From Mycobacteriales bacterium (lineage in GTDB: Bacteria; Actinomycetota; Actinomycetes; JAFAQI01): a stretch of 64,000 bases of DNA. Position 1 is the first letter of the stretch; the number at the start of each line of letters is the position of its first letter. The stretch lies in contig DASZUS010000027.1 in assembly GCA_035547515.1 (NCBI GenBank), positions 9,189 through 73,188 on the forward strand, written 5' to 3'. Positions 58,645 to 64,000 of this stretch are shown here, piece after piece. The translations under genes and the position numbers were made by a program. A model generated the notes under the pieces. It was not told where the DNA came from, did no database searches, and saw nothing but the letters and a program-made list of their open reading frames with translations.

Positions 58645-58732
58645 GTCGGAGTGGCGGAATGGCAGACGCGCTAGCTTGAGGTGCTAGTGCCCTTTAACGG
58701 GCGTGGGGGTTCAAGTCCCCCCTCCGACACCA
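58645..58732 (+). tRNA. tRNA-Leu (anticodon GAG), CCA encoded
   Basis: GTCGGAGTGGCGGAATGGCAGACGCGCTAGCTTGAGGTGCTAGTGCCCTTTAACGGGCGTGGGGGTTCAAGTCCCCCCTCCGACACCA. Acceptor GTCGGAG/CTCCGAC, anticodon loop TTGAGGT, a long variable arm and a GGTTCAAGTCC T-loop. Confidence 0.9.
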
Positions 58733-58857: not shown

Positions 58858-59364
58858 TCAGTCGACGTCAACGTCGGGCAGCGTGCGTGCCAGCTCATCG
58901 TCAACGTCCAGGCCATAACTTGCTGCGACGATCGCGACCTGCATGCCAACGCCCGCCCTTAATTCGCCGAGTGCTTCTCCGAACCAGTAATCGTGCATAG
59001 CCCACCGACCATCTCGGTAGAGGTGGCGAGCTCTCGCCTCATCGCTATGTCGGGGCTCGCTTGCGCCAACACGCTCAAGGAACTGAAGGCAGTACCGGCG
59101 ACCAATTCGTAGAGCGCGTTCGAGTTCCTTCGCGATGCCGCCCTCGCCGAGCAACTCGGTGATGAAGTCTCGAATTTGTAGCACTGACGTGACGCATTGC
59201 TCTGGCACTTCGTCGGAGTAGGTCGAGAACAAAACTCTGCGAGCTTCGACGAAGGTGATGAACTTGCGAGCGACCGCGACGTCGACTGTCGGCGGCGTCC
59301 ACGAAACCCCGAAGATGGGCGTGCTCAACCCGTTCACGCGCGCCGCGATCTCTGCGAACTTCAT
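58858..59364 (-). CDS. Hypothetical 168-aa protein, translationally coupled partner of the SIR2-like gene
   Basis: Its ATG overlaps the SIR2 TGA (ATGA at 59361-59364). [25 protein letters not shown]... with an acidic DVDVD C-terminus. No TM or NTPase motifs. No family I can name with confidence. Confidence 0.6.
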
Positions 59365-60344
59365 TGCAGTTCGCCACTACTGGCGGGCTGCCCGTGCTGG
59401 GTCTCGAGTCGTAGCAGCGAGAGAAACATTGGAAGGTCGTTCCACCCGTCGAGCCAGATGGTGTTGACGTCGAGCGAGCGCAGGTACCGGTCCTTCACCG
59501 GACTACGCCGGCCCTGCACTGTGTAGGAAGCCGGCATGTTTGGACCGTAGAGCTGTCGAACGTCGTCATGAATCAGGTTGAAGTTCGGGTCGCTCAGGCT
59601 GAAACCTACGAATAGGAAGGCCGCGTCGCTCATCTCACTCCGTAGTAGGGACAGCATCTCCTGGCGCTCGCGCCTTGCCCTTGCGTAGTCGGACCGTGTG
59701 AGAACGATGGTGTCGGGCTGATCGATTGACCCATGAAGTTTGACCAGGTGGGACATGGAGCGCTCGGCCCGATGGGCTCGGAATTCATCTTCTGTGATGC
59801 TGACGCGCAAGGGCTGCGCGGCGTCCCTGTACGCGGCCTCAATGAGCTCGTCGAAGTTGGTCGTGAAGATGAGTGGAAGCTTCAGGCGGACGAGCTCGAC
59901 GTGGCTCGGTGTCGTCTGGATGAATGGTTGTCGCGTCGAATCAAACTGCATTGCAAGGAATTCGCGGTAGTTGGCTTCGCCCACTGTCTGTCGGAACAGC
60001 TGCGCGCAGTCCAGGGGGCCTTCTTCGATAAAGAAGGCTCGCAGTGAGTCCTGCTCAGCGTCAGGGGTCTGGATGGCGATCTCCCGGTACATGCGGTTCA
60101 CGAGCCATGGCCAGGAGGGCAGCGGCAGACCGTCGTCCTCTGGCGTGATTCCGCGGTGCGGAAAGTCTTGGGGCCACCACCTGTCGTACCGGTCGTAGTC
60201 GAAACGGGCGCGACCTTGCTGCCTCGCTGCGCCGAACGATAAGCCGGCACCGAGGAAGATCAGGAGGCGACCGCCGTCGCTGAGCGCGCTGCGCAGGCGG
60301 TGTAGAAGACCTAGATTCGCGTCGTCCTCGTGCCAGACAGTCAT
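59361..60344 (-). CDS. SIR2-like (SIR2_2-type) NAD-binding/NADase domain protein
   Basis: From the ATG at 60344 (GGGAGA SD): [45 protein letters not shown]. These appear in the order typical of defence-associated SIR2 domains. Confidence 0.8.
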
Positions 60345-60414
60345 GGGTCGAGTCTCCCAAGCCACGGCGATTCTTACGCTTCGTCTCACTCGACTGGCCG
60401 GTCGAGGCGCCGCC

Positions 60415-61686
60415 TCAGTCGCGGCCGTTGCCTTCGCGGCTGCCAACGACGAGTTCCGTCATCAAGGCGGCAGCGCGCGCGGACCGCTCCTTCAAAACGT
60501 GGGAGTAGACGGTCCTGGTGACCATGACGCTGTTGTGGCCCAGCAGTTGGGCGACGATCTGGTCGTCGACGCCGGCGAAGATCATCGCGGTCGCCGTGGT
60601 GTGTCGAGTGTCGTGAAGCCGCAGCATCGGCAGCGGCTCGTCGGGGTGCTTCTTGTTGTACTGGGTGATCATTCGCTTGAAGGTCCGCGACAGCCGATCA
60701 GGGTGCAGCGGCGTACCGACTCGCTTGTCGGGCTGGTTGCGGCCGTCGCTGACGAAGACGTAGTCGCTCTCGACCCACTGGCCGGCTTCGCGCCCGGCGG
60801 CTCGTTCGGCGTCCTGCTTCGCTTTGTGCTTCTTTATGACCTCGATGAGGACGGCGTCGAGCGGGACGAACCGGCCCTTGCCTTGGCCCTTGGTGGTGTC
60901 GCGTTCGATGACCTTGCCGGAGTAGGTGGTGGTCCGATTGCGGGTGAGCGCGAGGGTGCCGTGTTCAAGGTCGACGCCGTCCCAGCGCAGGCCGAGCAGC
61001 TCGCCGCGTCGGGCGCCGCGGGTGAAGTACAGCCAGAACAGCGCGACCAGGCGGTGGTCGGCGTAGTGGGTCAGGAACGCGAGGATCTGTTCGGGCTGCC
61101 ATATGTCGTAGCTGCCTTGGTCGGACTTCGGCGGGGTGCGCGGGATGTCGTCCTTGCCGATCTGTGTGCACGGGTTGGTACGCCGCAGCGGCGGGTCGGC
61201 CGTGATCGCGTCACGGAAGCACGCCCGCAGGATGTTGTGCACGTAGGCAACGGTCCGCTGCGACAGCGGCCCGCGACCGCCGGGACTGCCGTGGAGCATG
61301 AGCCGGTCGTAGAGCTTGATCAGGTCGCGCGGCGCGACGTCTCGGACCGGCAGGTGGCCGAGGTCGGGCGCGATGTGCAGTCGGATGTACTTGCGGTAGG
61401 ACTCGTAGGTGGTCTCGCTGAACCGGCCGAGCCGGACCCGGCGCGCGAGGATCGTGTCCCACTCCGTGAACCACTCGCCCATCGTGAGCGCGGTCGTCGC
61501 GAGCGCGACGCCGTCGTGCCTGCTGTCGCTGTCGGTCTGCCCACGGATCCACCGGGTGCCGGCGGCGCGGGACGGCAGACCTTTCTTGCGCAAACGTCGG
61601 CCTCGGACCGTGACCTCGGCGGTGAAGGTGCCGGTGGCAGGGTTGGGGTAGACGGTGCCCTCGCCCCTGCTGCGCCGTCCCGCCAT
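60415..61686 (-). CDS. int: Tyrosine-type site-specific integrase
   Basis: 423 aa. Catalytic pattern GARRGELLGL (Arg), LHDTRHTTAT (His-x-x-Arg), LGHNS and TVYSHV (Tyr). N-terminal SAM-like/AP2-like arm domain. Confidence 0.9.
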   Translation of the reverse strand: MAGRRSRGEGTVYPNPATGTFTAEVTVRGRRLRKKGLPSRAAGTRWIRGQTDSDSRHDGVALATTALTMGEWFTEWDTILARRVRLGRFSETTYESYRKYIRLHIAPDLGHLPVRDVAPRDLIKLYDRLMLHGSPGGRGPLSQRTVAYVHNILRACFRDAITADPPLRRTNPCTQIGKDDIPRTPPKSDQGSYDIWQPEQILAFLTHYADHRLVALFWLYFTRGARRGELLGLRWDGVDLEHGTLALTRNRTTTYSGKVIERDTTKGQGKGRFVPLDAVLIEVIKKHKAKQDAERAAGREAGQWVESDYVFVSDGRNQPDKRVGTPLHPDRLSRTFKRMITQYNKKHPDEPLPMLRLHDTRHTTATAMIFAGVDDQIVAQLLGHNSVMVTRTVYSHVLKERSARAAALMTELVVGSREGNGRD

Positions 61687-61705: not shown

Positions 61706-61912
61706 TTACAGTCGCCCCGCGGTGCGGGCCATCCAGGCACGCAGGTCGCCGGCTTCGAACCGCAGCTCGCGGCCGAGCTTGAGGGCCTTGAGTTCGCGGC
61801 GGTGCCGGTAGACCCAGTCCTTGCTCATCCGCAGTACTGCGGCGACTTCATCGACTGTCAGCAACGGCTCGACCGCAAGGGGTCTAGTGGCGTCTGTGGA
61901 CAACGTGGTCAT
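61706..61912 (-). CDS. xis: Excisionase / MerR-like HTH DNA-binding protein
   Basis: LLTVDEVAAVLRMSKDWVYRHRRELKALKLGRELRFEAGDLRAWM is the excisionase-family HTH_17 pattern. Start taken at ATG 61912, 8 nt after GAGGAGG. Confidence 0.7.
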   Translation of the reverse strand: MTTLSTDATRPLAVEPLLTVDEVAAVLRMSKDWVYRHRRELKALKLGRELRFEAGDLRAWMARTAGRL

Positions 61913-61925
61913 GCTGATCACCTCC

Positions 61926-64000
61926 TCACCGTGAGCGGCCGAAGCCGCGGTCCTGGTCTCGCGAGTAGCGCTGCAGGGTGCGCCACGGGTCGTCGGATCG
62001 TTGCCTGCGGGCGAGTTCCTGGCGGCGGCTGTCGCGGAGGCGCTCGATCAGCTCGCTGGTCAGGGTGCGAGTTCTGCGGTCCGAGCTCGCGCGGGGCGGT
62101 CCGCAGTCGATCGGGCTGTCGAGGTCTTCGGCGAGGTAGAGGTGGTTCGCGACTCGGCCGCGGGACAGTGCGACGTACCCGTGTTCCTTGGTGATCGGTC
62201 CGAGGCCGTAGACCAGGGTCGTGTCGACCGTGAGGCCTTGCGCCTTGTGGACAGTGGCGGCGTACCCGTAGGTCAGTTCGCCGTTGGTCAGCATCGTCCG
62301 GTCGAGCCTGACGGTGGCTCCGCTGTCGAGAGCGAGTTCGAGTCGGCCTGACCGTGGATGGACGACGGCGACGGTGCCGCGGGCACCGTTGACCAGACCG
62401 GCCCGTCGGTCGTTGACGGTGACGAGGATCCGGTCGCCGGCCCGGAACGCCGTCATCCCGTCGGGACTGGCGACGACGAGCTCCCGGGCGCCGAGTCGGC
62501 CGGTCGTAACCAGCTCACTGCGGATTGCGGTGTTGAGTGCGGCGACGTCGCGACGGCGCGCGGCGAGGACCAGTACGTCCTCGTCGCCGTCGGTGTGCTT
62601 GACGTAGTCGCGGGCGACGGTGGCGAGCAGATCCGCTCGGGTCGGCGCGGTGTGCACTCGGCCGTGCGCGCTGTAGGCGTCGAGCGCGGTGACCGGGTCG
62701 CCGTCCCGCAGCCTTCGTAGCGCGTCGCGTTCCCAGGGCTCGTGTTGGCGTTGGTTGCCGGACAGCCGGATCGCCTCAGGCCGTTCAGCGAGCGCGGCGA
62801 ACAGTCCACCGGCGCCGATCTCGGGGAGCTGGTGCGGATCGCCGATGAGGGTGAGCTTCCCGTCGACGGCGATCACATGTTGTTGGAGGCGGTGATAGGT
62901 GCGGGTGTTGACCAGACTTGCTTCGTCGAGCACGACGATCGCTCCGGGTGGGAGGCCGTGCCGGTCGGCGTCGTGGACCAGTTTGGTGAGGCTGACGGTC
63001 GGGATGCCGGTGGCGGCTTCGAGCTGTTCGGCGGCGAGCCACGAGACGCATGCGCCGAGGACCGGATGTCCGGAGACGGTCCAGATGTTGTGGGCTTCAG
63101 CGAGCGCGGCGGTCTTGCCGGACCCGGCGGGGCCGGCGACGACGTCGACCCGGCGGCCGGAGCTGGTCAGCTCGGTGACCATCGCGACCTGCTCGTCGGA
63201 CAGGTCCGCGAAGGCGAGTCGCCCGTCGCGGACCATCGACGAGGCGACACCGACCGGCCGCGCGGGTTCGGCGGTCGCGGCGGCGAGGGCGGCGTGTTCG
63301 ACCAGGAGCAGTTCGCGTGTGGTGTAGCGGCGTTCGCAGCCCTCGCGGGTCGCGACCGGGATTACCTCGTCCGTGCCGATCAGTGTCAGGACGAGCCGGT
63401 CAACGTCGGCGAGTTTGAGCGGCGTTCCGGCAGGCACGGTGTCGCAGATCGCCCGCGTCAGTTCCTGTCGGGTGAACGTGGTCCGGTCGGCGGTCACACC
63501 GTCCGGGCCGAACAGCTCGGCAGCGAGCCGGTCGACATCGACCGCGCCGGTGAGACGAGCCTGGCCCACGAGACTGCGAACTCTTGTCGCCGGGAAGCCG
63601 ATGGTTTTTGCGATGTCCGCCCATCGCTCGCGAAGCGCGACCTGACTCGTCCGGGGTTTGGCGGGACGGGTGTCCAGGCACGCAGCCTGGGCCGCTTTCG
63701 GTCCGCTGGTCCCGTGTCCGGTCATCGCGGCGACGATCTGTCGGCGACGTTGGGAGAACCCGTCGATGACCGGACGCGGGATCCCGACGATCTCCGCGAT
63801 GCCCTTGGTCACCGGGGTCCAGCCGACCCCGAGCGTGCGGGTCAGCTCCCCGCGCAGCACCGCCTGGTAGAGGCTGCTCGCGGTCCGGGAGTACCGGTAG
63901 ATCGCGGCGGTGTCCATCGCCGACCAGCGCCCGTCGATGCCTTGGACAAGGTTCGGGATGACGAGGTGCGTGTGCAGCTGCGGGTCGCCCGCCCGGCTGG
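61926..64000 (-). CDS. MobF-family (TrwC/TraA-like) relaxase-helicase; N-terminus outside window
   Basis: The frame stays open to the window edge and reads ...GDPQLHTHLVIPNLV (relaxase His-triad motif). Then VVAGPAGSGKTAAL (AAA_30 P-loop), VLDEASLV and YGYAATVHKAQGLTVD (UvrD_C-like). Confidence 0.85.
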   Translation of the reverse strand, partial: SRAGDPQLHTHLVIPNLVQGIDGRWSAMDTAAIYRYSRTASSLYQAVLRGELTRTLGVGWTPVTKGIAEIVGIPRPVIDGFSQRRRQIVAAMTGHGTSGPKAAQAACLDTRPAKPRTSQVALRERWADIAKTIGFPATRVRSLVGQARLTGAVDVDRLAAELFGPDGVTADRTTFTRQELTRAICDTVPAGTPLKLADVDRLVLTLIGTDEVIPVATREGCERRYTTRELLLVEHAALAAATAEPARPVGVASSMVRDGRLAFADLSDEQVAMVTELTSSGRRVDVVAGPAGSGKTAALAEAHNIWTVSGHPVLGACVSWLAAEQLEAATGIPTVSLTKLVHDADRHGLPPGAIVVLDEASLVNTRTYHRLQQHVIAVDGKLTLIGDPHQLPEIGAGGLFAALAERPEAIRLSGNQRQHEPWERDALRRLRDGDPVTALDAYSAHGRVHTAPTRADLLATVARDYVKHTDGDEDVLVLAARRRDVAALNTAIRSELVTTGRLGARELVVASPDGMTAFRAGDRILVTVNDRRAGLVNGARGTVAVVHPRSGRLELALDSGATVRLDRTMLTNGELTYGYAATVHKAQGLTVDTTLVYGLGPITKEHGYVALSRGRVANHLYLAEDLDSPIDCGPPRASSDRRTRTLTSELIERLRDSRRQELARRQRSDDPWRTLQRYSRDQDRGFGRSR

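Follow-up and report, generated by a model that had tools for sequence, protein, structure and literature searches.

We analysed a 64,000-nucleotide stretch of DNA, hereafter the window, from a Mycobacteriales bacterium (GenBank assembly GCA_035547515.1, contig DASZUS010000027.1, positions 9,189 to 73,188). Our subject is a cassette of two genes on its reverse strand. The first gene (59361..60344) begins with an ATG at 60344 and encodes a 327-residue protein of SIR2_2 type, predicted to be an enzyme that cleaves nicotinamide adenine dinucleotide (NAD+), or NADase. The second gene (58858..59364) encodes 168 residues and belongs to the DUF6650 family, which includes the Thoeris protein ThsG. The SIR2 stop codon and the DUF6650 start codon overlap by four nucleotides (59361..59364, reverse strand), in an ATGA with the sequence ctgcaATGAagttc. 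This arrangement predicts translational coupling. An earlier interpretation of the window, made from its letters alone (the sequence-only reading), had described two open reading frames (ORFs) of these lengths with a 4-nucleotide stop/start overlap. The ORF coordinates and the sequence bear this out. We report that the cassette joins two known defence modules in a new way, and that this combination is rare but evolutionarily stable.

The product of the first gene carries all the hallmarks that the sequence-only reading had listed for a defence-type SIR2 protein. Pfam places SIR2_2 (PF13289) at residues 158-294 (E 3e-29, 102.4 bits against a cut-off of 24.5). The motifs GAGLS (residues 32-36), TTNFDELIE (161-169), KLHGS (202-206) and a fourth (245-255) occur in the expected order. 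All are unvarying in 25 homologues, including Asn163 and His204. In a profile alignment to the ThsA structure 6lhx, Asn163 and His204 line up with N112 and H152 of BcThsA via TTN(Y/F)D and K(L/M)HG, so that the earlier choice of catalytic Asn and His residues stands. We take N112 and H152 to be needed for the NADase activity of ThsA. The same 25 homologues open with a shared MTxWHED. Hence, the ATG at 60344 is supported as the correct start of the gene.

In PADLOC, the SIR2 protein matches ThsA best (E 1e-30), through its SIR2 part and only over positions 90-225 of the 478-position profile. Further PADLOC matches, to PDC-S25, LmuA, Avs5 and Dsr1/2, all fall on the same stretch of about 110 residues. 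NCBIfam scores are 31.5 bits for Avs5, against a cut-off of 1000, and 25.6 bits for Dsr2, against a cut-off of 1400. The latter score and the length of 327 residues agree with the previous judgement that the protein is too small for DSR1 or DSR2. A profile search of the PDB with the 25 homologues found ThsA (7uxt, 6lhx and 8bto, E about 1e-24) and also KomC, DSR2 and FAM118B. The AlphaFold2 model consists of one Rossmann-type domain (predicted local distance difference test, pLDDT, 83.6) with a disordered insert at about residues 46-67. Its top Foldseek neighbours are KomC (template modelling score, TM-score, 0.78 over KomC), ThsA and the DSR2 SIR2 domain. Superposed on the SIR2 domains of ThsA, the model reaches a TM-score of about 0.65, taken over the query. 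The protein has neither a SLOG domain nor any other sensor domain; Pfam reports SIR2_2 only and the model has a single domain. We conclude that the first gene encodes a bare defence-type SIR2 protein of the ThsA/KomC/DSR2 type, and that it is a predicted NADase.

The second protein had been called unrecognisable, and this did not hold. Pfam DUF6650 (PF20355) matches its residues 8-157 (E 3.7e-11, 43.6 bits against a cut-off of 27), which correspond to positions 3-145 of the 150-position profile. The protein matches PHROG 29952 at full length (E 3e-21) and its NCBI label is already "DUF6650 family protein". The partner has no match in the 2023 PADLOC library or in NCBIfam. These resources predate or omit ThsG, so the non-match is uninformative on novelty. 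As the sequence-only reading had proposed, no named system model in PADLOC or NCBIfam covers both genes. Transmembrane segments are absent from the SIR2 protein and, as had been stated, from its partner. By sequence, the partner is a soluble DUF6650/ThsG-family protein and not an orphan. The former picture of a SIR2 protein with an orphan partner thus gives way to a recombination of two known defence parts.

Operons of TIR and DUF6650 genes have been described as type VI Thoeris, and the DUF6650 effector was named ThsG (bioRxiv 10.64898/2025.12.03.692087). Briefly, the type VI TIR protein produces 2'-cyclic ADP-ribose (2'cADPR) upon infection. Growth of type VI cells is arrested by 2'cADPR and not by 3'cADPR or cADPR. 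In AlphaFold3 models, ThsG is a homo-hexamer that forms a tube, with positively charged pockets where the protomers meet. In total 255 type VI operons were reported, and in most of those tested the gene order is TIR then ThsG. According to the authors, the mechanism of toxicity of ThsG proteins without transmembrane helices is unclear (bioRxiv 10.64898/2025.12.03.692087).

The AlphaFold2 model of the window DUF6650 protein is all-alpha, with five to six helices (pLDDT 73.7; the N-terminal 21 residues are of low confidence). A PDB profile search, and Foldseek with this model, found generic helical bundles only (E > 0.05, TM-score < 0.5). We aligned 26 DUF6650 members with 32-67% identity to the window protein. 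Arg43, Arg89 and Arg136 are invariant, R42 and R65 are nearly invariant, and the window protein has all five. The conserved arginines fit a putative phosphate-binding pocket that would itself be conserved. Those that are invariant agree with the inter-protomer pockets of the published ThsG hexamer models, and all five are obvious candidates for the predicted nucleotide-binding pocket.

A DUF6650 profile search of 1.84 billion representatives returned 1367 clusters at 50% identity with E <= 1e-3, and 752 with E <= 1e-10. Nearly all are single-domain proteins of 150-200 residues. A scan of IMG/VR with the DUF6650 family alignment, and tblastn against INPHARED phages with DUF6650, found nothing. 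The equivalent searches with SIR2 gave only remote matches, which in IMG/VR were 22-31% identical.

The pair recurs. Two further copies, at loci L111 and L107-L110, were found by look-up of the closest homologues and not by unbiased scans. Homologues of the partner do, then, neighbour SIR2 genes elsewhere, which the sequence-only reading had made a test of its proposal. At L111, the SIR2 protein is 84% identical to that of the window in the alignment (87% by BLASTP) and the DUF6650 protein 83%; AbiTii is encoded nearby. At L107-L110, the identities are 74% for SIR2 and 77% for DUF6650, and the pair comes after a DUF4365 gene and a gene for 476 residues. Both L111 and L107 keep the same 4-nucleotide (A/G)TGA overlap as the window pair. 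No third gene is conserved around the pairs, and the flanks have nothing in common between the window, L111 and L107.

Neighbour-joining trees of both proteins place the three pairs in one clade, ((window, L111), L107), nested among solo relatives. Synonymous divergence (dS) between the pairs is saturated (1.3-1.9), and the ratio of nonsynonymous to synonymous divergence (dN/dS) is 0.07-0.14 for both genes. Hence, both genes are under strong purifying selection. We conclude that the pair is rare and clade-limited, yet a real unit that recurs and has co-diverged. Two normally independent modules were joined once, and their junction has been kept under selection across changing contexts.

To count pairs, we treated a SIR2 locus as informative if it had at least 550 bp downstream, and a DUF6650 locus as informative if it had at least 1 kb upstream. 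The genes are paired at 2 of 26 informative SIR2 loci, and the other 24, with homologues 43-75% identical, are without DUF6650. Similarly, 2 of 20 informative DUF6650 loci are paired and 18 are without the SIR2 gene. Most SIR2 loci from metagenomes have no co-directional ORF downstream. Among the solo relatives, one SIR2 gene (75% identical) lies beside an OLD-like ATPase gene. Solo DUF6650 homologues, 66-75% identical, occur in a Mycobacterium marinum prophage, a Streptomyces integrase island and a Tn7-like element. The context was defence-like or mobile at every locus examined.

Two of these loci have further features. In the L107 contig (Logan SRR34502224, 34-5134), the genes for a DUF4365 protein of 446 residues and for the 476-residue protein form a tight co-directional string with the pair. 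A gene for a 268-residue protein follows 44 nucleotides after the pair, and the unnamed genes of the contig have no Pfam match. The string may be a larger island or operon. The M. marinum DUF6650 gene (L019, PEDF01000080.1, 4371-6941; 66% identical) has WhiB, HNH, terminase and portal genes nearby in its prophage. It overlaps an upstream gene for 124 residues and comes after a gene for 420 residues, neither of which has a Pfam family. Just beyond it is a HicA toxin gene.

In the window, the cassette is placed between a tRNA-Leu(GAG) gene (58645..58732, forward strand, identified by ARAGORN) and a tyrosine integrase gene, int (60415..61686, reverse strand). The tRNA gene is the presumed integration target, on the attachment (att) side. 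The integrase has 423 residues and matches Pfam Phage_integrase (E 1e-20) and Phage_int_SAM_3. Beyond it, also on the reverse strand, are an excisionase-like gene for 71 residues (61706..61921; HTH_17, E 8e-12) and a TrwC/AAA_30 relaxase-helicase-like gene (61926..63917; AAA_30, E 2e-49). With int, an excisionase-like gene, a transfer gene and a tRNA gene all present, the cassette is cargo of a tRNA-Leu integrative element. This agrees with the cargo slot assigned to it previously. The element extends past the end of the window. The 3' part of the tRNA-Leu gene, taken as a 13-mer, has no repeat elsewhere in the 64-kb window, which would place the far end of the element beyond it. In the relaxase-helicase-like ORF, residues 2-104 match positions 178-284 of the TrwC profile. 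As listed, this ORF is without the first 177 or so positions of the 286-position model. A stop codon is found just upstream of the ORF, inside the last 80 or so bases of the window. Truncation, a frameshift or the window edge itself may account for the incomplete relaxase.

The lowest G+C content in the window is that of the 59-60 kb bin (0.597, against 0.65-0.755 in every other bin), as the sequence-only reading had noted. At third codon positions, G+C is 0.69 and 0.75 for the two cargo genes compared with 0.89 for int. A spacer of 70 nucleotides (60345..60414, reverse strand) separates the int stop from the SIR2 start. It contains a Shine-Dalgarno-like GGGAG at 60354-60358, 9 nucleotides before the SIR2 ATG. 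No sigma-70-like promoter was found in a consensus scan, the coverage of which does not extend to actinobacterial promoters. Hence, transcription may come from int read-through or from an actinobacterial promoter. A consensus terminator scan gave nothing useful.

A similar arrangement is seen in Mycobacteroides chelonae (L024, JAYXBR010000015.1, 585-5981). Here a solo SIR2 gene, with a product 73% identical to that of the window, lies directly downstream of int. The element carries FtsK/SpoIIIE, RepSA, HTH_17 and int genes, and has the same int-then-SIR2 layout as the window. This suggests that the SIR2 family is a habitual cargo of actinomycete integrative elements.

No gene for TIR, SLOG, HerA, prokaryotic Argonaute (pAgo), STAND, HAM1 or deaminase proteins lies in or beside the cassette. 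For TIR, HerA, pAgo and STAND this had been claimed before. The partner protein has no match to PF01725 or PF00962, and there is no third gene in the cassette. A phmmer search of the six-frame translated window with 20 ThsB TIR domains (Table S1 of the type VI preprint) found no match, although this search is weak and also missed the Pfam-confirmed TIR domains of locus L114, described below. At eight actinobacterial loci with solo DUF6650, Pfam detected no TIR in the ten upstream neighbours scanned, and it detected none among the neighbours of the L111 and L107 pairs. Its matches in these neighbours are of defence-island types, including ResIII helicase, Hypoth_Ymh and AAA_21/PHP. In Sinorhizobium medicae plasmid pSymA (L114, CP140906.1, 3078-5141), a 33%-identical DUF6650 gene lies between two TIR-type genes. 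The flanking proteins are a CAP12/Pycsar-effector-type TIR (PF10137, E 5e-40) and a SEFIR/TIR_2 protein. At this locus tblastn splits the DUF6650 match into two pieces, and the sole ORF annotated beneath it is shorter.

Different small proteins accompany some relatives of either gene. SIR2 homologues 64-70% identical occur with a partner of about 218 residues in Nocardioides pocheonensis (L025, RJSF01000047.1, 5001-6622) and at L033 (3155-3859) and L035 (3228-3878). This partner has an N-terminal transmembrane helix. Its gene overlaps the SIR2 stop by 4 nucleotides in L025 and is upstream of SIR2 in L033 and L035. The L025 pair adjoins an operon of the cyclic oligonucleotide-based antiphage signalling system (CBASS; SMODS and E2), a SLATT-like gene and a PIN gene. 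We considered the 218-residue protein as a divergent ThsG with a transmembrane helix and DUF6650, and rejected this since hhalign shows no DUF6650 relation. A second family, soluble and of 220-260 residues, is encoded beside otherwise solo DUF6650 genes at L007 (6491-7153), L012 (6513-7232), L010 (5157-5939, reverse strand) and L112 (5497-6153), the last of these on plasmid pNOCA01 of Nocardioides sp. JS614. The gene overlaps the DUF6650 stop in L007 and L112. Invariant residues of the family include a Y-L pair and H-C..GGHP.P. The 220-260-residue protein may be another DUF6650 partner. Neither family has a Pfam or PHROG match, and hhalign found them unrelated to DUF6650, to SIR2 or to each other.

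How might the two proteins of the cassette work together? The interpretation that we favour, tentatively and at somewhat short of an even chance, is a rare, stable, TIR-less module of Thoeris-like type. In it, a DUF6650 receptor for a nucleotide signal would be coupled to a SIR2 NADase, much as KomB is to KomC. Oligomeric DUF6650 would be the ligand-sensing subunit, and its conserved arginines would bind an ADP-ribose (ADPR)-derived or other nucleotide signal. Signal-bound DUF6650 would control the NADase of its SIR2 partner, and infection would lead to NAD+ depletion and then to abortive infection. The signal would originate outside the operon, perhaps from a TIR protein encoded at another place in the genome or from a reaction that depends on phage, or it may be the ADPR that SIR2 itself releases. 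The logic would be the same as for ThsA, where SLOG and SIR2 share one chain, and for KomB-KomC, where the receptor is separate from a SIR2-only effector. The close solved relatives of the SIR2 protein are all infection-activated NAD+ depleters, the one characterised role of DUF6650 is that of a signal receiver and KomC is switched by KomB, which would make a split receptor and effector the most economical interpretation. Consistent with this, distant DUF6650 genes adjoin other NAD+-cleaving domains, namely the type VI TIR and the CAP12-type TIR and SEFIR of pSymA. From these likenesses we infer the interaction of SIR2 with DUF6650, whether physical or functional, its direction, its ligand and NAD+ depletion as its outcome.

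A number of observations weigh against a receptor-effector pair. Only three independent pairs are known (window, L111 and L107), and even homologues that are about 75% identical are solo (L001, L115 and L116). About 45 loci, 43-74% identical, came from an unbiased scan of metagenomes with the SIR2 alignment. DUF6650 was in none of them, including the 24 where 550 bp or more of downstream sequence was available. An unbiased scan of a genome collection with the DUF6650 alignment gave 17 loci, none of which contains SIR2. Each protein must be able to function alone or with other partners. Fusions of SIR2 with DUF6650 are absent among the best 120 SIR2 matches and the best 150 DUF6650 representatives. 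The enzyme that would produce the signal is not in the operon. Furthermore, type VI Thoeris describes DUF6650 as an effector, not an adaptor (bioRxiv 10.64898/2025.12.03.692087).

Several of these points would suit another arrangement, in which two autonomous single-gene defence modules were joined once and co-travel as a small defence island, without acting on each other biochemically. The great majority of genes in either family are solo, and both families occur as single cargo of mobile elements (SIR2 after int in L024; DUF6650 in the M. marinum prophage and the Streptomyces island). No fusion proteins were seen among the matches listed above, and defence genes cluster for reasons besides direct interaction. 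However, the 4-nucleotide overlap has persisted while synonymous divergence reached saturation and the genomic context changed three times, and the gene trees are congruent. In addition, the one characterised role of DUF6650 is to receive a NAD+-derived signal and its partner is predicted to cleave NAD+, as does TIR in type VI Thoeris. This would be unlikely for an accidental neighbour. We consider independent modules the leading alternative, possible but rather unlikely.

It is more doubtful that the roles of the two proteins are reversed. SIR2 would then replace the TIR protein ThsB, sense phage and make a NAD+-derived messenger, with DUF6650 as the downstream effector. The gene order does mirror that of TIR and ThsG in most tested type VI operons, no external source of signal would be needed, and the effector of the one system characterised so far is DUF6650. 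Set against this, all close solved relatives of the window SIR2 protein are NAD+-depleting effectors. No enzyme of the SIR2 fold is known to us to produce a cyclic ADPR messenger, and literature searches gave none. The solo SIR2 relatives would be signal-makers without a receiver, and killing by a ThsG protein lacking transmembrane helices would itself be unexplained. If true, this improbable scheme would amount to SIR2-based signalling, in which a SIR2 protein for the first time synthesises an immune signal instead of depleting NAD+.

The sequence-only reading had suggested that the small protein senses infection or restrains the NADase. Sensing fits the signal-receptor role of the DUF6650 family. 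Restraint would make the cassette a toxin-antitoxin or addiction module, in which SIR2 is a constitutively toxic NADase and DUF6650 an antitoxin that stabilises the integrative element. The overlapping two-gene operon, the mobile element and the small size of the second protein are all as expected of such modules. Even so, DUF6650 is missing at the 24 loci of SIR2 homologues (43-75% identity) where the sequence extends far enough downstream, and for most of the family nothing co-directional follows SIR2 at all. Hence, SIR2 is not an obligately neutralised toxin, and this part of the suggestion is disfavoured. DUF6650 is likewise mostly found without SIR2, and in type VI Thoeris it promotes growth arrest rather than preventing it. 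We regard an addiction module as very improbable. Equally remote is the idea that DUF6650 is a sponge-like anti-defence protein, soaking up cADPR-type signals for the element with no functional link to SIR2: the family binds or responds to 2'cADPR, has members in prophages and forms a PHROG, and the known anti-Thoeris sponges Tad1 and Tad2 are small oligomeric proteins, but characterised DUF6650 members defend, including a DUF6650-like fusion validated with DefensePredictor, and the stable coupling to a defence NADase would be left unexplained.

The pairing shows the ThsG module in use outside TIR operons. The stable association of a ThsG-family protein that lacks transmembrane helices with SIR2 bears on how such ThsG proteins exert toxicity. 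Rather than killing by itself, DUF6650 may receive a signal and act as a switch for NAD+-cleaving enzymes. The Thoeris survey began from TIR genes and so would by design have missed the SIR2-DUF6650 pair. Since at least 752 DUF6650 clusters (50% identity, E <= 1e-10) compare with 255 type VI operons, most of the family may act in unknown contexts. The cassette is also a compact, 1.5-kb candidate defence system from actinobacterial mobile elements, a group with few systems tested.

Finally, we compared the cassette with known systems. The window partner is in the Pfam family of ThsG, above the curated cut-off, and is of the same size as the Bacillus ThsG proteins, which also lack transmembrane helices. 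As in type VI Thoeris, the DUF6650 gene is directly downstream of a gene for a predicted NAD+-cleaving enzyme, in defence or mobile contexts. Unlike type VI Thoeris, the upstream enzyme is a SIR2 protein and there is no TIR gene. By sequence, the SIR2 domain matches ThsA of type I Thoeris best, and the two align at the catalytic Asn and His. However, the window protein ends where the SIR2 domain of ThsA ends; it has no SLOG and no accompanying ThsB. Hence, any signal binding would have to be supplied in trans. DS-27 "SMEK" (WP_087896215.1), an experimentally protective E. coli protein found with DefensePredictor, is DUF6650-like in its C-terminal half (residues 169-292) by HHpred, with probability 0.88 (Science 2026, PMC13092281). 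It shows that DUF6650 can work with no TIR beside it. Unlike the window protein, DS-27 is a single fusion of a SMEK N-terminal domain with the DUF6650-like domain, its similarity to DUF6650 is remote and it has no SIR2 partner.

Among SIR2 systems, DSR1, DSR2 and other single-protein systems share the SIR2_2 domain and the expected NAD+ depletion, and most relatives of the window SIR2 protein are also single genes. The DSR proteins differ in their length of about 1000-1200 residues, with large C-terminal phage-sensing regions, whereas the window protein of 327 residues has only a disordered insert of about 25 residues. SIR2-HerA, SPARSA (SIR2-pAgo) and Avs5 have a HerA helicase, a short pAgo and a STAND NTPase, respectively, and the cassette has none of these. 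In Kongming, KomB is a small dITP receptor that activates the SIR2-only NADase KomC, and H146 of KomC is required for defence (bioRxiv 10.1101/2024.12.20.629578). The likeness is in architecture, with a SIR2-only protein of about 270-330 residues encoded beside a small separate protein, and in structure, with KomC the top Foldseek neighbour of the window SIR2 protein. By contrast, the window partner is DUF6650 and not HAM1-like, and there is no KomA deaminase. The association of KomB with KomC is tight and includes fusions, while that of SIR2 with DUF6650 is rare, clade-limited and free of fusions among those seen. A description of the pair was not found in literature searches on SIR2 with DUF6650 or ThsG, on type VI Thoeris and on orphan or standalone SIR2 proteins. 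We conclude that the cassette is not type I or type VI Thoeris, Kongming, DSR, SIR2-HerA, SPARSA or Avs5. Judged by its sequence, it belongs to the SIR2_2 and DUF6650 families and, in its predicted working, is most like the effector stage of Thoeris or Kongming.

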